A model generated the notes under the pieces. That model saw only the letters and a program-made list of their open reading frames with translations, searched no databases and had not been told where the DNA came from. From NCBI RefSeq assembly GCF_003991155.1, contig NZ_CP031293.1: a DNA stretch of 64,000 bases; one strand, given 5' to 3'. Positions within the stretch are counted from its first letter, which is position 1. Every line of letters begins with the position of its first letter. Shown one piece after another: positions 4,892-50,720 of the stretch. Both the position numbers and the translations under genes were made by a program. The stretch comes from Escherichia coli. Its GTDB lineage: Bacteria > Pseudomonadota > Gammaproteobacteria > Enterobacterales > Enterobacteriaceae.

Positions 4892-5049
4892 GTTACGACT
4901 TCAGAAATCTTTCATCCGCAAACTTTGAGGATCTTGTGCGGGATCTTATCGAAAAAGAAGAAGGGTTCGCTTCGAAGCATTCTCTGTGGGGGCTGATAAT
5001 GATATTGATGGCCGACACGCACATGCTGGAGGGAATGTCAGTTTATAGG
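4888..5049 (+). pseudogene. 53-codon remnant beginning a Mrr-like nuclease domain, ATGA-coupled to the STAND gene stop
   Basis: ATG 4888 overlaps the STAND stop (4889-4891); MSYDFRNLSSANFEDLVRDLIEKEEGF parallels the N-terminal motif of the upstream STAND protein, then terminates early; followed by about 1.2 kb AT-rich ORF-free DNA. Confidence 0.3.
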
Positions 5050-6264
5050 TAAAACCTTATGAAGGGGCGTCGTTTAGTATACTGATGGCTATTATGAAGT
5101 GTGAGTGGTTGTCTAAAGATAAGCTAGCCCTCACACGCTGTATCAAGCGACCTCTTGTTAGCTTACTCCAGCTAGCAAGAGTAAACTTTCCCCACTCATA
5201 GGGCTATGTTTGAAGTCCGAGTCGGAAATTGGGGGGCAGAAGACATAAAAGGTCTCCTTAAGAAGTCTTCTTGTCTGTACAAAAACTCTTATTTTGACAA
5301 AGAGCATTGTAGTTATTAACAGGCTGATTAATAAATTTAAAAATAAGTCGTCAGGAACACCAGATTAGCTACCCAAATTCTCATGCCGTGGAAGCGGAAG
5401 AAAAATACTCCCCTGAATATCTTCATATCGGATATACATAATAAGCTTGAGGTTGTATATTTGAAGAATTGAGTAGCCAGAGCCTTGTTGACATAAAGCG
5501 ACACGAACAACATGTTACTTAAAATATCACGAGTATATATTCAGACTTGTTTATGTTGCGACATGGATTCTACAGGCAGCTGGCTGAAACAGTGAGTCAG
5601 AAAAATTTACAGGAGCGCCATAGTCATTAATGGATATCCGTAATATGCTGATGCAAAAGGGTAAGGAGTTTGCCGGTAATCTGCGGTGTTAGACGACAAT
5701 TACAAAACGACCTTAGGCGTCAATTACCGCTGAAAAAAGTGACAGATCACTTTCTATAAAATGCTGCCGTATGACCGACAGATTTATTCCGCTTTATAGC
5801 CATGACTGTTCGGTGCTCACTTCGCTGCGCTCCGCCTCAGTCCTGCCTAAAAAGCGTTGCAGGTTAGTTTGTATCGGCCTAATGAAAGGCTGTTTTAGCG
5901 AAGCGTAAATGTGACATCTTATCTGGTCTAATCTCTTTGCGATAATTGACGCAAAAGCATGGGCTGTAATTGTCACGCAATACTGCGGCAAGTCTCATGA
6001 TGATGCCTCTGACAGGGATCTCCGTAGCCATTAACTGGTCGATTGGTAAGCTAAAACAAAAAAATTGAATTTGTCAAGACAGCCATAATGACTACCATTT
6101 TCGTCTCTGCTTTTCCATCCTGAAATTAATGGCTATCATATTCGCAATAGACAACATCATCTTACTTGCACTCAACTATAACTAATGCTGAGTGCAAGAA
6201 ACGGGGATTATATCCCCTATCAAGGACCTGTTGAAATATTAGTCTGGAATTTCGAGGCTGTAAT

Positions 6265-9285: not shown

Positions 9286-9763
9286 ATATTTAATGATTCC
9301 CAAAGTTTTTTATTCTGTCTGGCTAACTCATATAGTTGTTCAGTGATGACCTTTTTATCATAGCCTGCATTTGTTAAGATTTTTCTTAGGTCATCTATAT
9401 CCCTTTTCAAATATTGTTCTTTTGTCAAACCTCGAACAAATGCTCGTCTGAATGTCCAGGTAAGAGCATGTAAATCTTTACGCAGATTTATCGTAATTCC
9501 CTTACATTTTGTTGTGGGGCTTACCGCATCCTGAATGGCATGATGAGGTGTATGAGTTGCATTAAGCCCTGTTTTACCATTCGCATAAATTGAAGAACCA
9601 TATGTACCAACGTATAAATCTTCTCCTGGACCAGCTAACAATCCCAAGGGATCAATCCATACCAGTGGATTTGGAGCGTAATTGTAAAGGTTTACTCCCC
9701 CCGACAGTCCAATCGGATCAGCACACAGATACTGTCCTGTCTCGCAATCATAGTACCGGAACC
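9282..9763 (-). pseudogene. Rhs core tip plus C-terminal toxin domain, 5'-truncated by the IS3-family element
   Basis: Rhs-derived coding begins at RFRYYDCETGQYLCADPIGL...DPLGL exactly at the IS left terminus (9764); the annotated Met and first ~16 codons are read from IS terminal sequence. C-terminal domain of unknown family. Confidence 0.65.
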
Positions 9764-11013
<1,250 letters not shown>

Positions 11014-11016
11014 CCA

Positions 11017-11385
11017 CTACAATGAGAGCATAAGTACACCTGCCGTCATTTCTGGTACGGCAACGCCCCCCGGTGTATAAGCTGTCCCGTTAATGATGAT
11101 GTCACAGGCGGGTTTCAGGGGGGCGAGGTCGCTTTCGCGCAGTACCGGAGATGTGTTCATCTCCCCGGCATACTCATCTTCCACACACAGCGGTAGCGGC
11201 GGGTTTTCGATAAGTTGGGTTTGCCACTGACCATTTTCGTCCCGTTGCAGCCGGAAGCCCGTTTTCATGGCGATAACGCGGTGACGTTCGCTATGTTTAT
11301 CATCCATCGCATATTCTATCGCTGAAAACGGCGTCAGGTTACGAAATTCCATATTGCACCCCGATCCCGTCTGTACCTGTCGCAA
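11017..11385 (-). pseudogene. N-terminal fragment of a gene truncated at the IS right end
   Basis: ORF runs into the IS right terminus and hits a stop inside the inverted repeat. N-terminus MEFRNLTPF... is tentatively reminiscent of T6SS-associated DUF2169-type proteins, from memory only. Confidence 0.35.
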
Positions 11386-11790
11386 AACATAATTCTACAG
11401 ATGGCACAGTATCCCCCTGATACAGGTAAAAACTTATTTCACGGAAACCGGCATAGCAAACTGGATGACACAATACCGGGCAAAACGATAAGTATGGTTA
11501 CTATATGAAACGGAATACTCCCGTTTCGTATTATTTTTTTTGACTGATATCAACGGGACGAATTAACTGACAGGATATTTACTGGAAAGTGTCTGCATAT
11601 TGCTCAATATATTTTTAATGGAAATGTATTCTCCATTAATATTTATGGTGTGATTGTGTTTCCCTGTGTGTCAGCTTCCGCTAAACCCCTTGCTGCAAAT
11701 TACCGATCATTGTATTGTTGCGCCGCGCCTGCAAAATCAGGCGTCGGGATTGGAACCCTGATAAGTGTTACAGGCGACATATAGCGCATT

Positions 11791-12426
11791 TTGCGTCTTT
11801 TTTATGTCGTGCGTCTGGCTGCATCTCAATGGTGGGCTGGACGGGGGCGTCGCAAGACGCGCCGGTTTCCTGTAACACCGGTAGTTCCAACCCCGTTCAG
11901 TTCACCACCAATGAGATTGGAACCTCTGGTGGTGGAATTACCACCCGTTACAGGAGGCTATCCTATGGTTATCATCCTTTCCCCTGACTGCGACTTACTT
12001 TCCATCCCCTTCAGTGCCACCACGGATTTCACCGATCTGGCCGACTACTGCGATCGCTTCGCTGAAACCCTGATCGAATGCCACGATCCGGCGCTGAAAA
12101 TGGCGCTTTATGGCAGGATCAACGCCAGCCTTGCGCTGCTGCGTCCCTCGTTGGGCGAGCCGATCCCGCTGCACCTGATCGACCGTTTCATTGTGGACAC
12201 GCTTCCCGACGTTTCACCGCGCTTTGAACCCGGCGCAGGGCTGCTCTGTGACTACTGTCTGGCGCTGACGCAGGTATTAAGCGGGCGGTCGCTGCTGCCG
12301 GAAACCGAAACCACACTGACCGGGTTGCTGTGCGAACTGGTCTGGTATTTTGCCGCCGACCTTAAAGCGCCGCAGTGGCTGCGCACCGCTGATGGCTTAC
12401 AGGTTATTGACGGGGGGACGGTATGA
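11791..12426 (+). CDS. hypothetical protein, translationally coupled to the downstream Ner-like gene
   Basis: GC-rich ORF whose stop overlaps the Ner-like start (ATGA at 12423-12426); true start uncertain. Confidence 0.35.
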   Translation: MRLFYVVRLAASQWWAGRGRRKTRRFPVTPVVPTPFSSPPMRLEPLVVELPPVTGGYPMVIILSPDCDLLSIPFSATTDFTDLADYCDRFAETLIECHDPALKMALYGRINASLALLRPSLGEPIPLHLIDRFIVDTLPDVSPRFEPGAGLLCDYCLALTQVLSGRSLLPETETTLTGLLCELVWYFAADLKAPQWLRTADGLQVIDGGTV

Positions 12427-12677
12427 TGCAACCGGACTGGCATCCCGCCGATATCATGGCAGCACTGCGAAAACGTGGTACGTCGCTGGCAGCGGTTTCC
12501 CGCAAAGCGGGACTGGCGTCCGCCACACTGGCAAACGCGCTGAGCCGCTCCTGGCCGCGTGGCGAAAAACTCATTGCGGATGCGCTGGAAACATCACCGG
12601 AAATTATCTGGCCGTCCAGATATTTCGATGATCAGGGCAACCGTATTGTAAGGCTCATGCGAAAGCAGTGCTCCTGA
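12423..12677 (+). CDS. Ner/Nlp-family DNA-binding protein
   Basis: DWHPADIMAALRKRGTSLAAVSRKAGLASATLANALSRSWPRGEKLIADAL...IWPSRY matches E. coli Nlp / Mu Ner closely from memory. Confidence 0.8.
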   Translation: MMQPDWHPADIMAALRKRGTSLAAVSRKAGLASATLANALSRSWPRGEKLIADALETSPEIIWPSRYFDDQGNRIVRLMRKQCS

Positions 12678-12796
12678 TGACAGAAGTGTCAGAAACACGA
12701 TTACAGTAAAATCAGGCTCTCCCGGCTCTCTGCCTGCTTCTGCTGGCGGAGAGCCGGGAGAAGACAAGCGAAGCGCGGCAGGATGCCATCCCGCTG

Positions 12797-13099
12797 TTGA
12801 TAACAGTCACAACCGGAGTCGTTTTTATGCACATGTTTAATCCACCCCATCCGGGTGACGTCCTTCGCGATTATCTGGACGGCGTGAGCATCACGCAGGC
12901 CGCTTCCCGGCTTCAGGTATCGCGCTCGCGGTTATCCCGTATCCTCAATGGACATGCACCAGTGACGGCTGATATGGCGCTACGTCTGGCGGCGCTGCTG
13001 AATACCCGCGCTGAACTGTGGACGGGGATGCAGTCTGAGTATGGCCTCTGGCAGGCGTCACAAAAACCACGACCCGTTATCCGGTCATTGCGGGGTTAA
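12797..13099 (+). CDS. HigA-family HTH (XRE-type) antitoxin-like protein, no adjacent HigB-like toxin ORF
   Basis: NPPHPGDVLRDYLDGVSITQAASRLQVSRSRLSRILNGHAPVTADMALRLAALLNT...ELW is the HigA/VapI pattern; likely start at internal Met (12827 or 12833). Confidence 0.7.
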   Translation: MITVTTGVVFMHMFNPPHPGDVLRDYLDGVSITQAASRLQVSRSRLSRILNGHAPVTADMALRLAALLNTRAELWTGMQSEYGLWQASQKPRPVIRSLRG

Positions 13100-13186
13100 C
13101 TCAGCATTTTACATTCACAAATACACGATAAAATCAGGGGGAAAACCAATATCCAGAAAAATGAGTTTCCCCTTTCTGCGCCAGAA

Positions 13187-15521
13187 ATAACGGTGTAATC
13201 TCCCTCCTGCATTGTCGCCTTCGGGCACCCTTTGGCTTCATGGTCTGCAAGAAGCCCCTGATTTATCAGGATGACCAGCCCTTACTACCGGTACGACCTC
13301 CGCAATACCGGAACGCGAAAGCGTTTGAGGCTAAGAGTACATACACCCGAACGGCTTCATCGTCATTGCTTAACGGCAACAGTCTTCACCGGCTGAACGG
13401 CTTTTCTTTGCCGGAATTTCCCGACTGCCCCATACCCAGCTGAAAACAGCGCCCTTTACATGACGGGCTGCGGCCTGCATTGCCGTCAGGCTTTGCTGCC
13501 GCGTGACCGTCATTCTGCACCAGAAACGCAACGTTTACCCCCTGCACCAGATGAGGCGTCACTTTGGTCGCGCCAGCGAAAAAGCAAAGTGACGCCGTAC
13601 AACATACCGCCGCAAGCCGCGCCAGTTCTGGCCTGCGTCCTGTTTCCGCCGTCTGACATGCCCTTTGGGGCGCTGTCAGTCCAGAGTAAAGGAGAAAAAG
13701 ATCGATACCGAGGGGGGCACGACGCCCCGGAGATACCCCTGCTTCGTCAGGCAGTCTGTACCGCGTACAGCCTGAAACTCCCTAAACCTCAACAATCAGC
13801 CACTCCGGCGTGAAGGTATCGTTCTGGCGCAGCCAAAAAGCACACGCCGGAGACTGTTTGTTTTTTGTTGCAGGGGGTAGTTATGAGCAAATTAAGCAGT
13901 GAAATGAAGGCGCTGGCGAAAAAAGCAGGCGGTAGTTTCAGAACGGTGGACTACCGTATCCATGCCACGAAGCGGTTCAGTCAGCATTTACGCGAACTGA
14001 ATATTCAGATCCAGCGGGTGGAGCAGATCAAAGTTCGCCATATCGAATGCTATATTCAGGAGCGGCTGGAGCAGGATATTGGCCTGCGCACGCTGCAAAA
14101 CGAAATGGCGGCGCTGCGGGCCGTGCTGAGGCTGGCGGGACGCCGGCAGGTGGTGGAGCATCCGCGCCTGACCAATAAGGCGCTGGGGCTGTCAGGTGCT
14201 TCGCGCAACGGCACGCGTCGCGCCATCACGCCGGAACATTATGAAAAAGTGATGGAGAACGCCCGCGCACAGGATGCGGGGCTGGCGGCAGCGGTGGAGA
14301 TCGCGCGACTGATGGGATTACGCTCGCAGGAGGCGGTACAGAGTTCACAGTCGCTGAAAACGTGGCTGAAAGCCATTTCCCGCGGCGAAACCCGGCTGAA
14401 AGTGGTGTTTGGCACCAAAGGCGGGCGTCCGCGTTACACGACGCTCCTGGACGCTGGCGCAGTCAGGAAGGCGGTGGAAAACGCATTACCGATCGCCAGA
14501 CAGCGCAATGGCAGGCTGATCGACAAGCCAGACCTTAAAACGGCGCTGGAGAGCTGGCACAAACAGGCCATTAAGGCGGGGCTGAAAGGGGAATTTTCCC
14601 CGCACTCGCTGCGTTATGCGTGGGCGCAGGACGCGATCCGCCATTATCTGGCGCAGGGATTCAGCGAAAAGGAATCGCTGGCGCTGACGGCGACGGATCT
14701 GGGTCATGGCGACGGTCGCGGCCGCTGGGTGAAACAGGTGTACGGCTACCGCTGGAAGGAGGAATAACGGCTTTCATGAATGGCGCAAAATAGTACGTTA
14801 CTGCGTAACGACAGCGATTTATCGTACCCTCTGTACCGGATCTGGCGCAGGGGGCGAGCGGGTTTGTATTGTGAAAATATCGTTACAGCATGACGAATAA
14901 ATATCAATAGCTCAGATTTTCCTGCTGAACCAATGTAGCTCGCCGGAATATTATAGTGATTACCCGGTAATCACTCGAAACGATCCCGATTAATAGCTGG
15001 TGTTTCAATCGTTTTACCGATATTACAGGTACAGGGTCGGGAAATTTTAAAATGTAAACTCACCGAGGCATCACATTAATTCTGGCGCAGGATTATATCT
15101 GAATAATTCTCTCTGTGTTTTCCTGCATCCTGTGACATATATTGCATGGTCACAGAATGTCTCATGATTTTATAAAAAATGCTGCGACGGTTTTTGACAT
15201 CATAACCTGCTGCATATAGATTAATAATTTTCGGTGCTTCATGTTATTTTTTTGCGCTCTGTGATCGTTATCTGGTGGTGAAAATACAATCTGGTGCAGA
15301 CTGTCATGGTGCATTTCTGAATAAACTGGTTGCGCCAGAAAGGGAAAGGGCCATAAAGGTTAAGGGGCGATAAGGGTAACAGCGCCTGACCGGAAAGGGC
15401 CGAAAACCAAAGAGCCAGAAACTGGCGCAGTCCTGAATGTGTGAAGTGGCGAGACGCTGGCGCAGATAACCGATCTTCCGGGGCTGGTGCAGATTATTTC
15501 GTCTCTGTATATCTGGTGCAG
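13187..15521. repeat. dispersed array of at least 10 copies of the decamer TCTGG(C/T)GCAG
   Basis: Copies at 13187-13195 (inverted), 13823-13832, 14841-14850, 15081-15090, 15289-15298, 15330-15338 (inverted, degenerate), 15421-15430, 15456-15465, 15483-15492, 15512-15521; mostly in non-coding DNA flanking the integrase-family gene. Confidence 0.7.
13883..14767 (+). CDS. tyrosine-recombinase (phage integrase) family protein, short form
   Basis: C-terminal FSPHSLRYAWAQDAIRHYL...GRWVKQVYGY has the HxxR...H...Y pattern of tyrosine recombinase catalytic domains; AGGGGG Shine-Dalgarno precedes ATG 13883. Confidence 0.5.
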   Translation: MSKLSSEMKALAKKAGGSFRTVDYRIHATKRFSQHLRELNIQIQRVEQIKVRHIECYIQERLEQDIGLRTLQNEMAALRAVLRLAGRRQVVEHPRLTNKALGLSGASRNGTRRAITPEHYEKVMENARAQDAGLAAAVEIARLMGLRSQEAVQSSQSLKTWLKAISRGETRLKVVFGTKGGRPRYTTLLDAGAVRKAVENALPIARQRNGRLIDKPDLKTALESWHKQAIKAGLKGEFSPHSLRYAWAQDAIRHYLAQGFSEKESLALTATDLGHGDGRGRWVKQVYGYRWKEE

Positions 15522-15579
15522 TTATAATATGTATCAGGGAAGGCTGTCCGGTATTTTATGACGCCTCTTTTAGAGTATA

Positions 15580-15654
15580 TTAATTGGTATTTCCGTGAAA
15601 ATATCGCTTATTGATAGTTTTTCATCTTCCGTGATTAACGCGTTAATCACGGAA
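15580..15654. promoter_or_regulatory. two adjacent palindromes (candidate operator or hairpin sites)
   Basis: Perfect 30-bp palindrome CTTCCGTGATTAACG/CGTTAATCACGGAAG, then an inverted repeat TACCTATCAA(N11)TTGATAGGTA. Confidence 0.4.
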
Positions 15655-15776
15655 GACTGTTACCTATCAAAAAAAGATATATTGATAGGTAACGGTCAAA
15701 TTTTATTTGGGGCCAAATAATTGTAGATACTTTCCGATTGGTAATAAAAAAGAACAACGGCAATACCTCTCAATAC

Positions 15777-15814
15777 AAAAAAGCAGATCCCGGCCAATCA
15801 GGATCTGCTTTTCC
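15777..15814 (-). terminator. intrinsic terminator downstream of the P4-type integrase reading frame
   Basis: Inverted repeat AAAAGCAGATCC...GGATCTGCTTTT followed on the minus strand by a T-run. Confidence 0.55.
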
Positions 15815-15841
15815 ATTTTAATGATTTCAGCTATTTATGAC

Positions 15842-17104
15842 TCAGGCTGCCTTATGCTGCCGCGCATAAATATACGGCGCGACATACCCCTCGCGGCACA
15901 CATCCAGATAATCCGACCACCACTGCATCATGGCCTTTCTGGCCTCCAGATGCTCCGCTTTATGCACATAGGCCGCCCGCACGCTGTTACGCTCCTAGTG
16001 GCTCATTTGCCGTTCCACCGTATCGCGTGACCAGAGATCCGACTCTACCAGGGCGCTACAGGCCATTGCGCGAAGTCCATGTCCGCACACATCGGTTTTC
16101 GTATCATACCCCATCAGGCGCAGCGCCCGGTTGGTTGTGTTTTCGCTCATTGGCTTGTACGGGTTATGGTCGCCGGGGAATACCAGATCCAGATGGCCGG
16201 AAAGCTCCTGTATCTGTTTCAGAATGGCAATCGCCTGGCGGGAGAGTGGCACGATATGCGGACTACGCATTTTTGCGCCACGCCCCGAAAACCGTACTTT
16301 GTCGATGGCCTCGCGGGTGGCGGGGATGGTCCAGATTTTGTGCCTGAAATCAATCTCGCTCCAGCGGGCGAAACGCAGTTCGCTGGAACGGATGAACAGG
16401 TGCAGTGTCAGCACCACCGCCAGCCGGGTTAACTCCCGGCCCTGCCGGTAATCGCCAATACGATCGAGCAATTCAGGCAACCGCTCCAGCGGTAAAGCGG
16501 GATAGTGATTCTTGACGGGAGAGGCGACTACACCATCCAGATGCTGCGCCGGGTTGCTTTCGGTCAGTCCCTGCTGAACGGCATAGCGCATGATGTTGCT
16601 GAGTTGCTGCCGGGTTCGGGACGCGACTTCCAGAAAGCCCTTATCCTCAATAACCCGCAGCAAAGCCGTGAAATCCTGCGTTTTAAGCGCAGCAACGGGC
16701 AGATGACCAATCGCCGGGAAGATATGGTTTTCCATACTGGCGAGAATACGGGCGGCATAATCAGCCGACCATTTTTTGTTGGTTTTGTGCCAGGCCAGCG
16801 CCACCGCCTTAAAGCACTTTTCAGGGGAGCAGGCGGATTTCTCTGCCATACGCTGTTGCGCCGGGTTGATATTCTGCGCCAGTAGCTTGCGGATACCGTC
16901 GCGCTGTTGCCTGGCTTCTGCCAATGAGACAAGCGGATATGCGCCAAGACTGACTCTGGATTCTTTTCCGTTGAAACGATATTTGAGATACCAGATGCGT
17001 GAACCACCCGGATTGACGAGCAGATACAGACCCTGAGAGTCGGAGAGTTTTACCGGACGGGAAGAAGACTTTAACTTGCGGATTTTAGAATCGTTTAAAG
17101 ACAT
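15842..17104 (-). pseudogene. P4-type tyrosine integrase interrupted by an in-frame amber codon (TAG at 15995-15997)
   Basis: N-terminus MSLNDSKIRKLK...GLYLLVNPGGSRIWYLKYRFNGKESRVSLGAYP is P4-integrase-like. Translation stops after ...VERQMSH, but the same frame continues ERNSVRAAYVHKAEHLEARKAMMQWWSDYLD... to a stop at 15842-15844; the catalytic-Tyr region lies after the amber. Confidence 0.75.
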
Positions 17105-17265
17105 TTGGGGGTCACTCCAGAATCGAACCAAACTGACCCCAGATCTGACCACCAAATTATCCCGATGCGGAGAGAAAATTAGATACGCACCGGGAAGGAT
17201 TTTCACGCTAACTTACTGAATCGTAAACAAATAGAGACGCATAGATAAGCATGAAAACTTGAATT

Positions 17266-17341
17266 TGGCTCCTCTGACTGGACTCGAACCAGTGACATAC
17301 GGATTAACAGTCCGCCGTTCTACCGACTGAACTACAGAGGA
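17266..17341 (-). tRNA. tRNA-Asn (GUU)
   Basis: 76-nt reverse complement of TCCTCTGTAGTTCAGTCGGTAGAACGGCGGACTGTTAATCCG...GGAGCCA; anticodon loop CUGUUAA. Confidence 0.95.
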
Positions 17342-17441
17342 ATCGTGAGAACGAGGCGAATATTAGCGACGCTCATCCACAATGTCAAAGCCTGTTTTTT
17401 AAATTTGAAATCGTTTGCTGAAATAATCTGCACTTTGTCGT

Positions 17442-19088
17442 TTATTCCGACACAACTGGCTTTTTTTCACACTTTTGCGGCTCAGGTCGAGGATATTTCC
17501 ACAGCCAACGTCCAGTAACCATTCGCCAGTAAAACAGCACGGCCCGCACAGCCCAGTCGGCAAACATTCCCATCCAGACACCAACTACACCCCAGCCAAG
17601 CATGATTCCCAGCACATAACCGACTACAACCCGGCAACCCCACATGCTCAACATAGAAACCCACATGGCGTAACGTGCATCGCGAGCACCCTTAAATCCA
17701 GCGGGTAGCACCCATGAGGCAGACCAAATAGGCATAAATAAAGCATTTAGCCAAATCAGAATCACAACGACATGTTTAACCTGTGGATCCTGGGTGTAAA
17801 ACGATGCCATAACCCCGGCAAAGGGAGCCGTTAGCCAGGCGATGGCCGTTAATCCAAGAGTGGACAGCCAGAACACATGCCGCAACTGAATCTCTGCTTG
17901 CGCTATCTGCCCTACCCCCAACCTTCGGCCTGTAATGATCGTAGAAGCAGAGCCGAGCGCACTTCCGGGTAAGTTGATAAGAGCCGCAATTGAAAACGCG
18001 ATAAAATTTCCGGCAATAACACTGGTCCCCATCCCGGCAACGAACATTTGGGTTAATAACCGACCACTGGTAAATAACACTGATTCGACACTCGCTGGAA
18101 TACCAATCCCCATGACTTCCCAGATAATGCTAAAATTCAGCGGGTTAAAATAGCTCTTTAACGAAATTCTTAGCGCAGGATTAAAACCAATCGCCAGCAC
18201 CCACAAAATTGCAACTGCGCCAATATAACGAGAAATGGTTAAACCCAACCCAGCCCCGACAAATCCCAGTCCCGGCCAGGAGAAAAGGCCGTAAATCAAT
18301 ATGCCGCTAATAATAATATTAAGAATATTCAGGCTACCGTTAATCAGTAGCGGTATTTTCGTATTCCCTGCACCACGAAGTGCCCCGCTACCAATCAAAG
18401 TGATGGCAGCTGCTGGATAACTGAGTACCGTCAGCTCCAGATAAGTCAACGCCAGTGCTTTAACTTCTGTCGTGGCATCACCCGCGACGAAATCAATAAT
18501 TTGTTCGCCAAAATGATGAATAAGCGTTGCCAACAGTACGGCAAACAACGTCATGATCACCAATGACTGCCGCGTCGCCACCCTCGCTCGTCGTCGATCC
18601 CGCTTACCGAGACAAAATGCCACAACGACAGTAGTACCAAGATCGATAGCAGCAAAAAAAGCCATAATGACCATATTGAAGCTGTCCGCCAATCCCACGC
18701 CGGCCATCGCATCTTTTCCCAGCCAGCTGACCAGAAAAGTGCTCAGGACCCCCATCAACAGGACACAGGCATTCTCCATGAAGATAGGAACAGCAAGCGG
18801 GGTTATCTCGCGCCAGAACAACACTTTGTAGCTCTTGCGTTTAGCGTGCCAGCGAGTGCCGTGAACAACCTGGCGTAAAGCAGAGGAGATATTCAAAGCC
18901 GACCTTAATTGCAGAAAGTGAAACCACATTTCAAATAATGAGGGAGAATCAGCAAAGCTGCAAAGATTTTCGCCAACAAATTGTCTGCAAATGCAACAAA
19001 CTGTTGATAGAAACGGCAAACGGTTGGGAAATTTAAAAATCGGGTTTGACAAAAGATTTTTCGCCGTTAAGATGTGCCTCAACAGCAA
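17442..19088 (-). CDS. yeeO: MATE-family efflux transporter YeeO
   Basis: 548-aa polytopic membrane protein in the yeeO position between two tRNA-Asn genes; N-terminal ~60 codons are not membrane-like, so the true start may be internal. Confidence 0.75.
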   Translation of the reverse strand: MLLRHILTAKNLLSNPIFKFPNRLPFLSTVCCICRQFVGENLCSFADSPSLFEMWFHFLQLRSALNISSALRQVVHGTRWHAKRKSYKVLFWREITPLAVPIFMENACVLLMGVLSTFLVSWLGKDAMAGVGLADSFNMVIMAFFAAIDLGTTVVVAFCLGKRDRRRARVATRQSLVIMTLFAVLLATLIHHFGEQIIDFVAGDATTEVKALALTYLELTVLSYPAAAITLIGSGALRGAGNTKIPLLINGSLNILNIIISGILIYGLFSWPGLGFVGAGLGLTISRYIGAVAILWVLAIGFNPALRISLKSYFNPLNFSIIWEVMGIGIPASVESVLFTSGRLLTQMFVAGMGTSVIAGNFIAFSIAALINLPGSALGSASTIITGRRLGVGQIAQAEIQLRHVFWLSTLGLTAIAWLTAPFAGVMASFYTQDPQVKHVVVILIWLNALFMPIWSASWVLPAGFKGARDARYAMWVSMLSMWGCRVVVGYVLGIMLGWGVVGVWMGMFADWAVRAVLFYWRMVTGRWLWKYPRPEPQKCEKKPVVSE

Positions 19089-20217: not shown

Positions 20218-21297
20218 TTAACTGTTCAAATCAGAAGTCGTATTCCCCGGTAGAACAATATTACTGGCAGCAAGTTCGCCCATGTTGTTGTATATCGCAC
20301 AAGCAGCTTCGATGATGGGCATCGCCAGAGCTGCGCCACTCCCCTCACCTAAACGCATCTCCATATTGAGATAAGGCTCCAGCCCCAAATGCGACAGCGC
20401 TATACGCGCCCCTTTTTCTGCCGACAGGTGAGAAGGAATGAGATACGGTTTGATTGCAGGAGACATCTGGCAGGCTGCGAGCGCAGCAGCATAAGAAAGA
20501 AATCCATCCAGCAACACGGGTAAACCGCAGGAAGCAGCGCCTAACATCACGCCAGCCATTCCGACCAAATCAAATCCACCCACTTTTGCCAGAACATTAA
20601 CGCCATCCTGCGGATTTGGCTGATTCAACGTAATCGCCCGGCGCACAACATCAATTTTATTAGCCAGTTTATCTGTCGGCAGGTTTGCGCCAATCCCAAC
20701 CACTTCTTCAGGATCCCGGCCAGTGATTGTGCTGACTATTGCTGCTGCCGGTGTCGTGTTTGCCATCCCCAGTTCACCTACACCAAACAGCGTGACACCG
20801 TTTTTTGCCAGCTCCCGCGTATAACATATGACGTCCAAAAGCAACTTTTCAGCCTGACGGCGACTCATTGCCGGAGCTGAAGCAATATTGCCGCTACCTC
20901 GTGCGACACGCATGTTGATAAGCCCGGGGATAGGCTCAGCAGTATCAATACCAACATCAATTACGTGGACGTTAGCGCCCGCTTGTGCTGCCAGCACACA
21001 CACGCCGGTTGTTCCGCGGGTCATATTTTCAGCCTGAATGGCTGTGACTTCTTTTGGGGAAATAGCGACCCCTTCCTCCCAGACGCCGTGATCGGCACAC
21101 ATAACCAGTACCGCTTTTTTGCCCACATGCGGTATGCCATTCAACCCCGGCATTCCCGCCAGTTGTACGCCAAGCGCCTCCAGCCTTCCCAGGCTACCAA
21201 CAGGTTTGAGTAACCCGTCAATATGCCGTTGTGCACGCGACATAGCGGCAGGATCGATGGCAGGGATCGTATTCAGTAAATTGGCAAGTGTTTGCAT
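20218..21297 (-). CDS. cobT: nicotinate-nucleotide--dimethylbenzimidazole phosphoribosyltransferase CobT
   Basis: 359 aa; N-terminus [19 protein letters not shown]... and gene order cobU-cobS-cobT. Confidence 0.85.
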
Positions 21298-21308
21298 GTC
21301 ACGTCTCT

Positions 21309-22052
21309 TTATAGCAGTGCCAGCAGGAAGACCAGTTCACCAAGCTCTATGGCTGCTCCCAGCGTATCGCCGGTTTGCCCGCCCAGCGTACGTTTGAGAA
21401 GCTGACCGAGGATGAAAATCGCCACCATCGTCACCACCATAGCAGCCACACCATGCATACCCGGCAATAATACGGCAGCAAAAATAGCGGCTAAGCCGAG
21501 TGTGACGCAGGTTTGTCGCCCATCAATTTTGCCAATGAACACATTGCCAAGCCCTTCTTCCCGCGCATAACGATGACGATACATCAATAATGCGGCAGTC
21601 CCGCGGCTGACCGCACATGCTGCCGCCAGCGATGCAAGGATCGGTTCGCCACGCAGAGCCAACTCGCTTAACACCAGAATCTTTGCCAGTACCACAAAAA
21701 TCAATGCCAGACCGCCGTGGGTGCCTAAACGGCTATCACGCATGATTTCCAACATGCGATCGCGGCTACGTGCAGAAAATACGCCATCACAGGTATCAGC
21801 GAGGCCGTCCAGGTGGAATCCCCCGGTCATCAGCGCCAGCATAAGTACGCTAAACAGTGCCGCCAGTGGTACGTCACACCATGCCTGCAGCACCATGAAG
21901 ACCAGCCCGCTAATCGCGCCAAGCAATAATCCAATCAAAGGAAAAGTAATAATACCGCGAGAATAATGCTCGAAATCCAGTCCCTGGGACCAGCGACGCG
22001 GTACAGGCAGACGCGTAATAAATGAGAGCATCGCCCAAAATAATTTACTCAT
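21309..22052 (-). CDS. cobS: adenosylcobinamide-GDP ribazoletransferase (cobalamin synthase) CobS
   Basis: Polytopic membrane protein; likely start [18 protein letters not shown]; between cobU and cobT. Confidence 0.85.
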
Positions 22053-43871: not shown

Positions 43872-45044
43872 TCAGGCCTTATGGTGGAAATAATCACTCA
43901 GCCGGGAAAACATGCTGCCTTCCCCGACAGATTCCAGGGTAACCAGCGGCCAGTGCGCCACCTGTTTATCACGGTCGTAAAGTTCAATTTCCCCTACCCG
44001 CTGATGGGCGCTAATTGGCGCGGTGAGTTCTTTACCATCAAGGGTATATTTGGCTTTGATATGTGGAATTTCGGCTTTCGGTAGCACCATCCAGAACTCT
44101 TGTTCCGTTCCCAGGGCGATATTTTCTTTATCGCCATACCAGATGCGTTCCGTACCAACCTTTTTCCCACGGTGCAAAATTTGCACCGTAGTAAAGTTTT
44201 GTTGCCCCCAACGCAGTAATTTTCTTGCCTCTTCCTCACGACCTTTTGCGCTGTCAGCCCCCATTACCACTGCAATGAGACGACGCTGCCCATCTACAGC
44301 CGAAGCAATGAGATTAAACCCGGCACCAGAAGTATGACCCGTTTTCAGGCCGTCAACATTCATGGTTTTATCCCACAATAACCCGTTACGGTTTTGCTGG
44401 GTGATACCGTTCCAGGTGAGGCTTTTCTCACTGTACATATGATAAAACTCGGGCTCGCCGTGGATGATAGCGCGAGAAAGCACAGCTAAATCATAAGCCG
44501 AGCTATGCTGGCCAGGTGCATCCAGACCATGCACTGTTTCAAAATGCGTATCCTTGAGATGCAGCTTCTCGGCATAGTTGTTCATCATTTCAACAAACTG
44601 CCGTTGCCCACCGGCAATATAGTCAGCCAGAGCAACACAAGCGTCATTTCCGGAATCCACAATTAAACCACGGCTTAAATCACGTACCGATACGCGATCG
44701 CCCTCTTTCAGAAACATCAGTGAAGAACCGACAAACACCGGATTATCTTTCGCCCACGCATCGCGCCCCACGGTGACAATATCGTCTGGCGTAATGCGAT
44801 GACTATCGATAGCACGATCCACGACATAGCCCGTCATCAGCTTTGTCAGGCTGGCGGGATTGCGCTGTTGATGCTCATTACCCGCGGTGAGAATCTGACC
44901 GGTGGTGTAATCCATCAATACCCAGGACCCGGCATGAATCTCTGGAGGCTGAGGTGAAAAAGGAATGTTTTCCGCCGCAAAACCAGACGATAAATTAAAA
45001 ACGAACAAAGAAGCAGCAATAATAAGACGGCGTTTCAACAGCAA
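43872..45044 (-). CDS. dacD: D-alanyl-D-alanine carboxypeptidase DacD (PBP6b)
   Basis: 390 aa with signal peptide; SxxK (ASLTKLMT), SGN and KTG motifs. Confidence 0.85.
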   Translation of the reverse strand: MLLKRRLIIAASLFVFNLSSGFAAENIPFSPQPPEIHAGSWVLMDYTTGQILTAGNEHQQRNPASLTKLMTGYVVDRAIDSHRITPDDIVTVGRDAWAKDNPVFVGSSLMFLKEGDRVSVRDLSRGLIVDSGNDACVALADYIAGGQRQFVEMMNNYAEKLHLKDTHFETVHGLDAPGQHSSAYDLAVLSRAIIHGEPEFYHMYSEKSLTWNGITQQNRNGLLWDKTMNVDGLKTGHTSGAGFNLIASAVDGQRRLIAVVMGADSAKGREEEARKLLRWGQQNFTTVQILHRGKKVGTERIWYGDKENIALGTEQEFWMVLPKAEIPHIKAKYTLDGKELTAPISAHQRVGEIELYDRDKQVAHWPLVTLESVGEGSMFSRLSDYFHHKA

Positions 45045-45246
45045 ACCCTCAGGTGTTTCAAATAGCTGTTCTTTTTACGGAAATACTTATGAACTGGCTG
45101 GAATAAAGTGCAAGAAAATGTGACTACTATCTCATTTTTATCTGACATGATCTGTTGCCACTCGCTGCCAAATTGTCGCGCTAAAGCTGATTAGCACGGT
45201 GATATTTGATACTCTGGCAGACAGCAGAAACAACGGATTTAACCTA

Positions 45247-45300
45247 ATGATGAATGACGGTAAGCAACAATCTACCTTTTTGTTTCACGATTACGCGCAA
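45247..45300 (+). pseudogene. sbcB: 5' remnant of sbcB (exonuclease I) at the prophage junction
   Basis: ATGATGAATGACGGTAAGCAACAATCTACCTTTTTGTTTCACGATTAC encodes MMNDGKQQSTFLFHDY, matching the SbcB N-terminus from memory, then diverges into ...AQHP-stop. Confidence 0.55.
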
Positions 45301-45775
45301 CACCCCTGAGAACCGCCATAAACAAGGGTTTCATGATTTGTGATTTTAGTTTGGTACGCAATTTGGTACACAACACAATTTTCACTTCAGCGGGTAGTCA
45401 TCAAACTCACCATAACGCACTTCGTTGATGATGTACGTGATCACCAAAAATATCGCATCCGGACTAGTTCCATCTTCATGCGCAGGCATATGTTCATGCC
45501 TACCTGTCTGCAAACCAGTAATAAGCCATTACAGGGTGATAGTGATGCATCAACTACGTTAAGCGCAGAGAAATGATGCAGTGGTGGGCGGATTGGCTTG
45601 ATGAAAAGGTGGAGTGATCCACCTTAACCACTATCGAAGAGCACAAAGCCTTGCAATCCAGTGCAAAGCTTTGTGTGTCTCAGTTTTGTTTCATAGGTAA
45701 TCATGCGTTCACTACGATGCAAGAATCCATACCAAATTTTATTTAAAACTCACAAATACACTAGATAAAAACAAT

Positions 45776-45794
45776 CCCGCAGTTTTCATGCGGG
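45776..45794 (-). terminator. intrinsic terminator downstream of the tailspike gene
   Basis: CCCGC-N9-GCGGG hairpin followed on the minus strand by a T-rich run. Confidence 0.5.
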
Positions 45795-45814
45795 ATATAC
45801 TGCATTTATTGCAA

Positions 45815-48292
45815 CTACATTGCCATTAATATAAACATAGCCAATTCGTCATAACGAATTCCGTAGCGTCCACCTGCTTTTTTTACAAGAATCATATTTC
45901 CTGTTTTATATTGAGAATAAATTTTCTCACCTGTATCAGGATCTGTGCTCTCTTCAGTTATCACCTCTTCATCCCATACGTCTGGCCATTCATCGTAACA
46001 CCAAAAAGCATATTGCTCAGGATTTAAACCATGCTTTCTAAGAATATCTCCTACGGTTTGAGCGCCAACTCCAAAATGATACCTTGATAACTCCAATCCT
46101 TTAAAATTAATCGACTCATTAAACCTGAACTTGCATATAATTCCCTTTATTTCCAGCGCAGCATCACGCTCTGCCTGAGTAATGTCATATATTGTTTTAA
46201 GTGTTTCATCTGATGTGCTTATAGTCCCGGATGCAGAATAAATCTGAGCCCATCTAAATGATGGTGCACCAAGAGATTTGCTGTTATCAATAATTGGTGA
46301 AAAATTACCTTTAATGGCAATATTTCCAGAGTCGCCGAATATATTAATAACTGTAGAGTCATCACCATGGTTTTTTACGCTTAAGTTTCTTGATAAAATA
46401 TTTATATCTTTGTTATACCCACTAACATTAATCCATCTTTTACCATCAATGTGATACCCGTAAATATTTCCGTTTGATTGTTCGTCAGGTGACTCTCTAA
46501 GAACAATAGCATCTACTCCAGACGACCATTGTATTTTTGTATCTGTAGGCCTCCAGTTCTTTATAATGAACGAACCATCAGTAAACTCCGTTTTTATTTG
46601 TCTATTGTCTACAAATGCGTCTCTTGGTTTAAACTCACTTGTGTTAACGCTGCTCTGAAGATCAGAAGCAAAAAATCTAAGATTTCCTGTATAACCCTGA
46701 GTCTCGGTCAGGTTATACGCAATCATAATTCCATTTTCAAACTCAGATGATGTTATTTTAACATCACGGCAATCACCAAAAATGCAATTTCCTTTATCAA
46801 ATGTTGTTTGAGCTTTGAATTTATCAAACCTTAAATTACGAACAGGGAAACCATCAACCTCTAATGCAAAGGATGCATGAAGGCCAAAGTATTCTGATGG
46901 CTTACCTGATGTATGATCAAGAGTAGTGGCTACTGTATTCTCAAAAACAGTCCCGCTAAAATTATTACCAATTGACGGAAACCTGATTACACTTATTGTA
47001 CCTTGTATTTCAGGAGAAATACCAGATAGTGTGATGTTAGTTCCATCAAATGATGCATCTGAATACGTATATACTGATTCACTGCCAGCAATTTTAAACT
47101 GTTTAACTGAAGTTATTCTCATCGACTTTTTATGTTTAAATGTCACTGAGCTTTCAGTATTACTTACAAGATCAATCTGAGGGCTATTCCTTATCGCGAT
47201 TCCTGACTGGACATAAACGTTATTAAAGTGCGTTTTTTCAGGATTTCCCTTCATTGAAAGGCTCCCGTCATTTTCTGTCAGTAGTAGTCCTTTTACCCTC
47301 CAATAGCCGACAATCTGTACGTTATCAATAACTGAATCACAGCTATCGTATACATGCAACCCTATATCCCAGTTATCACCCAATGAATAAGAATCAGGGT
47401 TATTGTATCCTTCAATACCATTTTTACTTACCATTATTCTCAGATTGCGTAACTGTGATGCCCTGTTGATACTAACAGCTACGCTCATGGCTTTTGGTGT
47501 AGCAGGAGTAACACCTACAGAATCTTCATTCGTAAACTCAGTGAACTTACAAGATATCCCTTCAACAATTTTAACCGGTCTTTCATTAGAGATGTTAAAA
47601 AAATATTTGTTTTTTTCTCCATCACCAGTAAATACAAGATGGGTTCCTTTACTCCAACTTTTTAATAATCTTTCAGGCGCTGGTCTATATGTATCCCAAT
47701 AATCAATGCCAGATCCAACCAGTGAACACCCCTCAGGAATGTTAATATTCTTCTTGATGATGCATATTCCTTCCGGAATTGTTATAACCGACCTTCCAGA
47801 GTTTAAAGCTTTAATAAAAGCATCTGAATCATCTGTTTCCCCATCTATTTTTGCTCCCCACCCTCTAACATCTCCACAATCTCTCCATCGTGCCATCTGC
47901 AACTCAGGATATTTTTTAGCGCCATCTGGATCTTCTAATTGCTGCCGTAGCTGATCGGGGTCATACTTCAGCACATTAGGAAAATAGAACTGCTGCGCAC
48001 CATATGCATCATAAACAGCCATAGAATGGCCTTGCACAGTTACAAACTTGGCTATTTGCCCGTTATATACCGGGTAACCAGCAGCGTTAATGATGATTGG
48101 TTGCGAAACAGGAACGTGAGAGCCATCTTCGTTCTCCACATAAACCTGAATCTGGTTTTCAGGATTTACAGGGTCAGTGTCAATTTTACCGATATAAATT
48201 TTGCCATTGGCAACCGCTTTAAAAGAACGTGCCATAGTGAAGAGTTGAGAAGGCATACTCACTACAACATTGGCATTTATCGAATCTGTCAT
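45815..48292 (-). CDS. tailspike protein (P22 gp9-like head-binding N-terminus, divergent receptor-binding body, C-terminal chaperone-like domain)
   Basis: First ~115 aa resemble the P22 tailspike head-binding domain ([37 protein letters not shown]...[13 protein letters not shown]...VLKYDPDQ); remainder unrelated. Confidence 0.8.
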
Positions 48293-48391
48293 TTAATTTG
48301 CTCCAGATACAAGGAATCGCCGCAGCATGGCTACGGTGAATTTTGGGCATAAAAAACCCAGCCGAAGCTGGGTCGTTGCGTTGGTTATCTG

Positions 48392-49321
48392 TCAGTAGTT
48401 ATGTACTGAAGGAGGTAATTCTTTATTCTTAAGTCTCATCCATGCGGAAAGATTCGTTGGTCCGTCTGGCTCATTGATATCAACATCTCGTGTGTGATTG
48501 ATTAAAACGTCTCTCGCCATTCCGATAACATACGAGAACTCATGACCATAGTCGTAGCATCTGCCGGAATAGTTCGATTGAATTTGTTTTAATGCCGGAT
48601 ACAGTTCGCGGAATAACGCCTGTGAGCGGTTGGCATAATCCCATAACCATACAAGGCTGTTTGCTTCTTTTGCAGAAAGCTCGTTGGTTTTCTTCTCTTG
48701 TTTGCCAATGAACTCACCTTCAAGCGGAACGCGAGCAGCAAGTGACAGTGCTTCGGTAAACTGCTCATCACTGATTTCTTTGTACGAACATCCAAAATGG
48801 GATTTCAGTGACGACCACATGGTGATCATCGCCTTCGCCTGTTTTTCTTTTGGCAGAGACTGACCGCGACTCATGACGAGTTGTTTAATGGCTTCCTGCT
48901 GTTCAGTGGTGATTTTACCCGGCAACGCCTTTTTAGCTTTGCGTGGGTTAACTACATGGCCTTTAGTCCAGTACTCGTAGAGCACATCGTCACACTCTTC
49001 CTGATACTGGATTACCTTGTCGCGGATTTCAGGGCGGACTTTGTTTGGACTGATGGTTTGCAGCCAGCCAGCAAGTTTGCGAAGTGCCAAACAAATAATC
49101 TCACGGCACTGTTCATCACCAGGAAGCTGCATTGTGATTTTCACAATGGAGGTTTTAAACCGTTGCTTTATTTTCGTAAACTGTGAAGCCCAATCCATAC
49201 CCATACCTTCAACGATAGGTTTCATTGGGGTGTACGGCTCACCGTTGTGATTGACGACATAAAGCTCTGCGCCGTGGAATGGCACGTTGATAGTAGATAC
49301 TGCTGTTGCTATACTTTTCAT
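48392..49321 (-). CDS. ant: phage antirepressor Ant
   Basis: 309 aa downstream of arc in the immI arrangement. Confidence 0.7.
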
Positions 49322-49646: not shown

Positions 49647-49898
49647 ATGTCTGATCGTAAGTACAAAAACCCTCAAGTGAATCTGAGGCTTCCTGTAGAG
49701 ATAAAGGAACGTCTTATTGAGCTGGCTGAGGCTAATTCTCGTTCATTAAATGCTGAGATGGTAGCAGCACTTGAGGCATGGACTGAAAAAAATAAACATA
49801 TTCAAGCACTAGATATTGCAACTATAGCATCGCGGTTGATAGAGCTTGAGCATGAGGTTGAGAAGTTAAAATGTATGCATGGCAACGGTGAAAAATGA
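49647..49898 (+). CDS. mnt: Mnt-like maintenance repressor (ribbon-helix-helix)
   Basis: 83 aa; NPQVNLRLPVEIKERLIELAEANSRSLNAEMVAAL; divergent from arc-ant. Confidence 0.75.
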   Translation: MSDRKYKNPQVNLRLPVEIKERLIELAEANSRSLNAEMVAALEAWTEKNKHIQALDIATIASRLIELEHEVEKLKCMHGNGEK

Positions 49899-50209
49899 AA
49901 CGCATCGCTATTTTGTTAATATTGTTCTTCTCTACAATAGTTTGCGCCAAACAAAAATCAGATAATGGCGATCTTAAAGGCCTGCAAGAACTCATGATAA
50001 CTTCGAAATTTGCTGGCATGTGCGGCACAATCAAACAAATGGCAACATTTCAAGAATCAACAAAAATGCCTGGCGGAGATGAGTTCTTACAGCGTTTTCT
50101 GACCACAGAGCAAGCAAGACTTGGAATGAATCCACAGGAGTTTCTTGAAGCATGCCAGAAGTCAATTTCAGCTTATACCAATTATTACAATCTAACTTCT
50201 GATAAATAA
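49895..50209 (+). CDS. small exported protein (signal peptide), mnt-coupled prophage moron
   Basis: ATG overlaps the mnt stop (ATGA at 49895-49898); MKRIAILLILFFSTIVCA signal peptide; 104 aa. Confidence 0.55.
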   Translation: MKRIAILLILFFSTIVCAKQKSDNGDLKGLQELMITSKFAGMCGTIKQMATFQESTKMPGGDEFLQRFLTTEQARLGMNPQEFLEACQKSISAYTNYYNLTSDK

Positions 50210-50234: not shown

Positions 50235-50720
50235 ATGAAAAAATCACTATTAATTATCCCGCTTCTGCTGGCTGGATGCGCAAAAGTAAGTGACTACCAA
50301 GCAAGTTGCGAACAACGCTATCCAAAGCTTAGTGATATGGCTAATTGCCTTGATGCCAGCGTGAAGAACGACTCACGCATGGCATCAGCACCAACACCTA
50401 AGCTGTATGTCCTTGCTGCGAAGATGCTCGGGCAAGGTGTCGATGAAGGCAAGATAAGTGACGCACAGGCAAGACTTGAGCTTCAGAATCTTTATGTTCA
50501 ATTACAAAGCCAAGAACAAGCCCAACAAATAGCGCAAAGCCAAGCATTCCAGCAGGCTTTATTGAATTATCAGGCTGTAAACACAATGCAAGCGATCGAG
50601 CAAAAAGCGCGCCAGCCTGTTATAACTCAACCTTACCCAACACGCGTTGACACATATACAAACTGCAATTCAGGATTTGGAAACACCGTCACATGCAACA
50701 GTAGCAGCAACATTAGATAA
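50235..50720 (+). CDS. lipoprotein, prophage moron at the P22 sieA position
   Basis: MKKSLLIIPLLLAGC lipobox; Gln-rich central region; 161 aa. Confidence 0.6.
   Translation: MKKSLLIIPLLLAGCAKVSDYQASCEQRYPKLSDMANCLDASVKNDSRMASAPTPKLYVLAAKMLGQGVDEGKISDAQARLELQNLYVQLQSQEQAQQIAQSQAFQQALLNYQAVNTMQAIEQKARQPVITQPYPTRVDTYTNCNSGFGNTVTCNSSSNIR

Follow-up and report, generated by a model that had tools for sequence, protein, structure and literature searches.

A mosaic P22-type tailspike with a divergent beta-helix body and a chaperone-like C-terminus in an Escherichia coli prophage, with probable specificity for the K14 capsule

The 64,000-nt stretch of Escherichia coli contig NZ_CP031293.1 analysed here (the window) carries a P22-like temperate phage integrated between sbcB and dacD, whose gp9 equivalent is an 825-residue tailspike assembled as a mosaic of at least four exchangeable pieces: a head-binding dock, a linker, a receptor-binding core and a C-terminal chaperone (Table 1). 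We consider it likely that this protein is a K14-capsule-specific, chaperone-matured and probably hydrolytic tailspike, the K14 counterpart of the K1 system of phage CUS-3. The evidence examined directly comprises the domain architecture, the fold prediction, how well the candidate catalytic residues are conserved, where the mosaic boundaries lie and how often the core co-occurs with the K14 locus across genomes; from these we infer autocleavage, enzymatic activity, the bond cleaved and the identity of the receptor. The original prediction, made from the sequence without database searches, was of a modular P22-type tailspike with a divergent body and a chaperone-like C-terminus. Domain searches and fold prediction support it overall, and all three of its proposed segments were recovered with matches far above chance.

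In the sequence of events that we propose, the 92-kDa precursor would trimerise, and its 132-residue chaperone domain would template the folding of the intertwined stalk and then remove itself, with Ser694 and Lys699 mediating cleavage of the Thr693-Ser694 bond, so that the mature subunit would be of 77 kDa. The head-binding domains would dock six trimers onto the tail hub, and the beta-helix body would bind and depolymerise a surface polysaccharide, allowing the virion to reach the outer membrane. Cleavage would most likely be hydrolytic, via D306, D309, E340 and D342. The target would most likely be the group-2 K14 capsule, not an O-antigen; the K14 polymer, ->6)-beta-D-GalpNAc-(1->5)-beta-Kdop-(2-> (GalNAc, N-acetylgalactosamine; Kdo, 3-deoxy-D-manno-oct-2-ulosonic acid), was first determined from an O6:K14:H31 strain (PMC3787102).

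The proposed specificity derives from the distribution of the core among 5426 complete E. coli genomes, a sample that is not phylogenetically independent. The full-length tailspike gene (98-99 % nucleotide identity) was found in 19 of these genomes and the core (residues 194-686) in 28, with nine copies of the core lying in the fibre gene of another prophage type. A K14-type kps region 2 was present in 27 of the 28 core carriers, including all 19 carriers of the P22-type tailspike, vs 107 of the 5426 genomes overall (hypergeometric P 7e-47); 12 out of 12 notionally independent lineages would still give 2e-21. As kps lies ~1 Mb from the prophage sites, the association is not one of physical linkage.

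Region 2 of the group-2 capsule locus in strain Combat2C1 consists of three genes, encoding a CatB-like O-acetyltransferase, a 760-aa protein and a GalE-like epimerase. The 760-aa protein, the polymerase, joins a GT2 domain to a KpsC/KpsS-type beta-Kdo-transferase domain, and its gene occurs in the 107 genomes as three allele groups of 25, 51 and 31 genomes. It is this fusion of hexosaminyl and Kdo transferases, together with a 4-epimerase and an acetyltransferase, that makes the shared locus fit K14. The locus layout of Combat2C1 is the conventional one and recurs in strains E50 and JJ1886, which represent the other two allele groups. Host OZ040490, whose region-2 gene is 100 % identical to the Combat2C1 query, is isolate 30602_1#64, which is typed as sequence type (ST) 131 clade B, O25:H4, K14/KL14 (supplement of PMC13171598). 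Two 2026 surveys place K14 among the commonest K types and in many lineages, including clonal complexes (CC) CC69 and CC131 (PMC13171598, PMC13171606), a lineage spread that matches the host spread of the tailspike core. In bloodstream isolates of E. coli, K14 is one of the four or five most frequent capsule types, and it stands near the top for invasive potential, second in one of the two surveys.

Other capsule assignments were considered and set aside. K52 was rejected as the common capsule on account of the beta-Kdo-transferase domain of the region-2 polymerase, K52 not being among the Kdo-containing K types. The atypical ST131 locus KL112, with its 'kpsS2' and CatB-like acetyltransferase, was a candidate for the 97.7 % polymerase allele and was rejected by the layout in JJ1886, which is conventional (kpsFEDUCS / region 2 / kpsTM / gsp) and hence KL14-like. 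ElmA is a chromosomal, prophage-borne enzyme of ~820 aa associated with K5, and this lead is unsupported for the present protein: no sequence similarity to the K5 lyases KflA and ElmA was found, the protein is not named ElmA in the sources and the hosts are K14, not K5.

Several points weigh against the K14 assignment. The link is a correlation of genome content, a published tool gave the K type of one host only (OZ040490), and kps lies outside the window, so that the association rests on other host genomes and not on the window's own. Strain GF43 (NZ_CP172127.1, core at 5035250-5036754) is the sole core carrier that lacks a K14-type region-2 gene; its capsule may have been lost or switched after lysogeny. 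The hosts include clones (CREC/CRKP-1 and E50/E57/E67/E20), and re-sequenced 'Esc' isolates make up 30 of the 107 capsule-positive genomes. The other two polymerase allele groups (96.9 and 97.7 % identity) are taken to produce an identical polymer or one that cross-reacts. Finally, of the three loci inspected, only that of E50 (11375-12394 of its stretch) has an intact GalE-like gene; the gene is a pseudogene in the other two, frameshifted in Combat2C1 (20693-21711 of its stretch) and interrupted by an internal stop in JJ1886 (11406-12395 of its stretch). If K14 needs UDP-GalNAc (uridine diphosphate N-acetylgalactosamine), then Combat2C1 and JJ1886 use another epimerase, or make an altered capsule or none.

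The correlative nature of the evidence, the GF43 genome and lineage effects that could not be fully removed here are also the points in favour of an indirect relationship, in which the spike recognises another glycan and K14 strains are merely the lineages where these prophages circulate or are tolerated. We think this unlikely, because the hosts span several O-types (and presumably lineages), three K14 polymerase allele groups, at least four insertion sites and two prophage types. Moreover, a capsule normally masks underlying receptors, so that a phage of encapsulated hosts needs a capsule-specific enzyme, and CUS-3 with K1 provides a direct precedent. As a further argument against another glycan, the protein shows no similarity to WcaM or colanic-acid enzymes beyond the generic fold.

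For P22-like phages, an O-antigen target is the default (PMC11990801), and the spike might on that ground be an O-antigen-specific endoglycosidase like those of P22, Sf6 and HK620, with a specificity merely differing from that of P22. The first host examined was O15, another strain bears the name O15_8X, and O15 and O83 are both enriched among the hosts (3 of 100 and 3 of 35 genomes, respectively, vs a background of 19 of 5426). Direct inspection nevertheless showed near-identical tailspikes in hosts with at least six unrelated O-antigen clusters (O15 in three, O83 in three, O2/O50, O6, O25 and one other). The prophage is inserted at sbcB/dacD, argW, near gal/tol and elsewhere, and O15 hosts and O83 hosts each include both the dacD and the argW insertion. 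No gtr or oac seroconversion genes flank the tailspike or occur in the gap between it and dacD, and the sole surface locus common to the carriers is kps K14 (27 of 28). An O-antigen receptor thus seems highly improbable. The O15 antigen in particular, to which M160133 and the strain name O15_8X had pointed, was rejected as the receptor since only 3 of the 19 hosts are O15, the others being O83, O2/O50, O6, O25 or another type. If the K14 reading is right, then in encapsulated E. coli the O-type of the host says little about the specificity of a P22-like prophage tailspike. Separately, the O-antigen clusters of three lysogens, read fully or partly, have insertion sequence (IS) elements or pseudogenes in or beside them: the O15 cluster of M160133 (21385-27130 of its stretch) contains ISAs1 and a frameshifted fnlA, DP051 has IS1 directly after galF (20752-21449 of its stretch), and the O2/O50 cluster of VG38-53E1 (9431-18349 of its stretch) has partial acyltransferase genes and ISAs1.

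The central ~550 residues had been predicted to be unrelated to P22 gp9, and sequence searches indeed found no gp9 similarity in residues 115-693. The beta-helix expected there was recovered by structure prediction. An AlphaFold2 monomer model built on 65 homologs has a mean predicted local distance difference test (pLDDT) score of 83, scores above 90 over most of residues 130-660 and a long series of short beta-strands that form, as modelled, a right-handed parallel beta-helix of the kind seen in pectin-lyase-fold depolymerases. Foldseek returned the same body fold as in the P22, Sf6 and HK620 tailspikes (E values 3e-15 and 2e-14). The beta-helix is predicted with high confidence for the monomer; in a P22-type spike, such bodies would form a homotrimer. 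No curated hydrolase or lyase family in Pfam matched the body; the PF12708 match is limited to residues 142-197, the first rungs, and lies at its cutoff. Although some homologs carry 'GH28-related' names, membership of GH28 was rejected, since there is no Glyco_hydro_28 Pfam match and GH28 structures align at the level of the generic fold only (10-15 % identity).

An acidic cluster provides candidates for the catalytic site. D306, D309, E340 and D342, on adjacent rungs of the helix, are kept in 57-63 of the 65 homologs, and their spacing of ~33 residues, about one helical turn, resembles that of the catalytic pairs of the P22, Sf6 and HK620 tailspikes. On the basis of this conservation and spacing, we regard the four residues as candidate catalytic residues. 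As for the chemistry, Kdo has no proton alpha to its carboxylate, so that a uronate-type beta-elimination is unavailable; K14 cleavage is on this account more likely to proceed by hydrolysis than by lyase action, and the core is probably hydrolytic.

The absence of a catalytic motif of any curated glycoside hydrolase or lyase family, with PF12708 confined to the first rungs, would also be compatible with a body that is a non-catalytic adhesin, binding its glycan without cleaving it. This is very unlikely given that the acidic residues (D306, D309, E340, D342, E352 and others) are at least 88 % conserved across homologs down to ~35 % identity, and that the closest structural neighbours of the body are mostly active depolymerases. 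Short-tailed phages of capsulated hosts, moreover, generally have to degrade the capsule.

The last ~130 residues had been likened to the auto-cleaving intramolecular chaperone domains of endosialidase-type fibres, and this part of the prediction is borne out by five solved members of the family. The phmmer searches with residues ~664-822 gave hits to Kp7 gp51 (7y5s, 2e-15), T5 pb1 (4uw8, 6e-12) and AS12 gp42 (6eu4, 1e-10) and, more weakly, to the endoNF chaperone (3gw6, 8e-10) and phi29 gp12 (3gud, 5e-6). The protein strings on which the likeness had been based are C-terminal, at residues 695 and 811-822. The predicted structure has the chaperone fold (Foldseek: 4uw8, 2e-9; 3gw6, 4e-9; 3gud, template modelling (TM) score 0.75), with pLDDT values of 81-95 over residues 700-825. 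One result tells against the assignment, in that the Peptidase_S74 score (PF13884) is 21.4 bits, 0.6 bit under the curated cutoff of 22, making Pfam alone borderline; most homologs have a precomputed PF13884 match. Taken together, the evidence that the C-terminal domain is an intramolecular chaperone is strong.

A Ser-Lys dyad in an S-D-x-x-x-K motif lies at the N-terminal boundary of this domain. S694 and K699 align with S911A/K916 of endoNF (3gw6) and S1264A/K1269 of T5 pb1 (4uw8), both uncleavable Ser-to-Ala constructs, D669 and R680 align with D1239 and R1250 of T5, and T693 aligns with Thr1263, so that each of the five residues that make up the autocleavage site of T5 pb1 has a counterpart here. 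In T5 pb1, the Thr1263-Ser1264 bond is cleaved by Ser1264 activated by Lys1269, and Arg1250 of the neighbouring chain, placed between Asp1239 and Thr1263, acts as a sensor of correct folding (PMC4690869). The domain is present in 58 of the 65 aligned homologs, every one of which retains the Ser and the Lys; the remaining seven have a different C-terminus. Upstream of the dyad, residues 654-693 match the last 40 positions (121-160) of PF12219 (End_tail_spike) and also residues 645-683 of the phi92 endosialidase (4hiz); pLDDT is low over residues 677-691 of the monomer model, which is to be expected where the chains of a trimer intertwine. The 91.9-kDa precursor would accordingly be predicted to yield a 76.7-kDa mature chain and a released 15.3-kDa domain, should autocleavage take place as the alignments suggest.

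At the other end of the protein, the first ~115 residues are P22 gp9-like, as originally proposed. Head_binding (PF09008) covers residues 4-114 (E value 1.2e-65, 219 bits vs a cutoff of 24), and the dock matches the solved structures of Sf6 gp14 (7sg7, E value 2e-63) and of the P22 gp9 head-binding domain (E values ~1e-48). Structure alignments give 85-91 % identity to Sf6 gp14 and ~64-75 % to P22 gp9, and residues 1-125 are 94 % identical to HK620 gp9. Since few of the aligned sequences contain this domain, it is poorly modelled by AlphaFold (pLDDT only 30-55), and it was assigned by sequence identity to solved structures and not by the model.

Comparison with relatives locates the junctions between the modules. 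Residues 1-164 are 87 % identical to the CUS-3 endosialidase tailspike; the similarity disappears past residue 164 and returns at the chaperone domain (34 % identical). The linker and first rungs (residues 115-195) match residues 214-291 of PDB 9vvr_A, and this junction segment is common to tailspikes with unrelated bodies, so that it looks like a recombination junction conserved across phage types. A tail-fibre pseudogene of a different prophage in strain ECONIH2 is ~99 % identical at residues 194-686 but only ~40 % at 147-193 and ~35 % beyond 687, indicating that the core recombines as a discrete unit, with its distal junction at the predicted autocleavage site. Sequences homologous to residues 115-825 (35-69 % identity), some of them without the chaperone domain, are found behind four adaptors: PF09008, the CBA120-type tailspike protein (TSP) N-terminal domain PF18668, the tail-collar domain PF12571 and the T7-fibre domain PF03906. 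The modules also differ in guanine-cytosine (GC) content (35.9 % in the core and 36-37 % in the core and chaperone modules, compared with 42 % in the dock and linker and 45-49 % in neighbouring genes).

The ECONIH2 prophage, the second type of core carrier, is inserted near yfgI and encodes a GH19 endolysin. Its fibre gene (3228-5702 of its stretch) has a different N-terminus of ~210 residues and is truncated within the chaperone domain, hence its annotation as a pseudogene; two intact 918-aa versions of the second-type fibre gene exist. Four genomes (Combat2C1, OZ040490, E57 and ECE170) hold two copies of the core, presumably one in a P22-like prophage and one in the second prophage type, which would mean that each of these K14 hosts was lysogenised twice, by phages that share a receptor-binding module.

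The closest counterpart in overall plan is the endosialidase tailspike (siaK1) of CUS-3, the P22-like K1 prophage of E. coli RS218. The two prophages are alike in being P22-like, associated with a capsule and resident in extraintestinal pathogenic E. coli (ExPEC), and the two spikes share an identical module plan, a genome position just downstream of ant, the dock and linker, and the S-D-x-x-x-K motif of the chaperone. They differ in the body, which in CUS-3 is an unrelated K1-specific endosialidase and here a single-chain right-handed beta-helix, and CUS-3 has the capsule O-acetyltransferase gene neuO beside its spike, whereas none is present here. P22 gp9, Sf6 gp14 and HK620 gp9 share the homologous dock, the right-handed beta-helix body and the gene position; their bodies lack sequence similarity to that described here, they have no cleavable chaperone and they target O-antigens, whereas the O-types of the present hosts are heterogeneous. 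The chaperones of endoNF, T5 pb1, phi29 gp12 and Kp7 gp51 are homologous in sequence and fold, with all five catalytic-site residues of T5 pb1 conserved here, and the preceding stalk segment is homologous to the endosialidase stalk end; these systems have other mature domains attached, and cleavage in the present protein is a prediction from sequence. PDB 9vvr_A, an 843-aa tail spike protein from a virion cryogenic electron microscopy (cryo-EM) entry with 18 chains, resembles the protein in its linker and first rungs and in its chaperone (E value 1e-29 overall) and differs in its N-terminal adaptor and beta-helix body.

The mosaic architecture is textbook phage biology, the dock-body-chaperone plan is already known in P22-like prophages from CUS-3, and the protein is already generically annotated in RefSeq. 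What is new here is the putative specificity for the K14 capsule, together with the exact placing of the module junctions. The literature searched, which was incomplete for older work on Kdo-cleaving phage glycanases, describes no phage enzyme specific for K14 of E. coli. On balance, we lean towards regarding the protein as the first phage enzyme of defined sequence that is specific for the K14 capsule of E. coli (GalNAc-beta1,5-Kdo), most likely a glycoside hydrolase with a catalytic site outside the curated families, carried on a receptor-binding cassette that different phage groups exchange widely and join to at least four types of adaptor. If this is true, the 500-residue core could be used as a K14 typing reagent, an anti-capsule enzyme or a phage-retargeting module, and the junctions at residue ~194 and T693/S694 mark where modules could be cut and pasted.

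Table 1. Coordinates in the window of the tailspike gene, its predicted modules and sites, and the adjacent hairpins
Feature	Position	Strand	Basis
Complete tailspike gene	45815..48292	-	ORF list; phrog_1171 'tail spike protein' E=2e-203; WP_205716835.1 identical
Residues 1-114, P22-type head-binding (tail-docking) domain	47951..48292	-	Pfam PF09008; solved structures
Residues 115-193, helical linker and first beta-helix rungs	47714..47950	-	CUS-3, 9vvr_A, PF12708 and ECONIH2 comparisons
Residues 194-693, receptor-binding, presumably catalytic right-handed beta-helix core and C-terminal stalk	46214..47713	-	
Residues 306-342, conserved acidic cluster D306, D309, E340, D342 on adjacent rungs (candidate catalytic)	47267..47377	-	
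Residues 654-693, stalk end (endosialidase-like triple-beta-helix segment) with D669 and R680, up to the predicted scissile bond	46214..46333	-	PF12219
Residues 694-699 (SDETLK), predicted autocleavage site T693/S694 with Ser694-Lys699 dyad	46196..46213	-	endoNF and T5 alignments
Residues 694-825, Peptidase_S74-type intramolecular chaperone domain, 15.3 kDa	45818..46213	-	phmmer, Foldseek, pLDDT
Terminator-like hairpin between the ant and tailspike genes	48355..48374	-	
Terminator-like hairpin, 19 nt past the tailspike stop codon	45774..45796	-	

The tailspike open reading frame (ORF) is intact on the minus strand exactly where it had been predicted; it runs uninterrupted for 825 codons from an ATG at 48292 to a stop codon at 45815-45817, with a GGAG Shine-Dalgarno sequence 8 nt 5' of the ATG. 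The identical RefSeq protein is named 'phage tailspike protein', and the exact protein lies beside dacD in four public contigs. As the final late gene of the prophage, whose right end adjoins dacD (43872..45044), the tailspike gene lies downstream of the ejection-protein genes and the immI/ant region, the gene order of a P22-type tailspike, both in the window and in E. coli M160133, whose prophage is annotated with a matching layout. Upstream of it on the minus strand are genes for the Ant antirepressor (48392..49321) and Arc/Mnt-type repressors, followed by two plus-strand accessory ORFs and, past these, by homologs of the P22 ejection proteins, tail needle, gp10, gp4, coat, scaffold, portal and terminase. 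The placement of the hairpin upstream of the tailspike mirrors the arrangement between ant and gene 9 in P22.

The related M160133 prophage has an IS1A insertion and a NUMOD4/HNH-type gene between its gp10-like and tail-needle genes (11644-12934 of its stretch); the window prophage has neither, and its late operon is uninterrupted. The 770-bp gap between the tailspike and dacD (45045..45814) is presumably the prophage-chromosome junction, and the corresponding stretch of M160133 holds an S24-family peptidase pseudogene fragment. The two accessory ORFs, between the gp16-like DNA-transfer gene and the immI region, encode a 104-aa protein with a signal-peptide-like N-terminus (49895..50209, plus strand; phrog_19844) and a 161-aa predicted lipoprotein with an LLAGC lipobox (50235..50720, plus strand; phrog_6067). 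P22 carries sieA at the matching position, and both ORFs are candidates for exclusion or conversion functions expressed by the lysogen.

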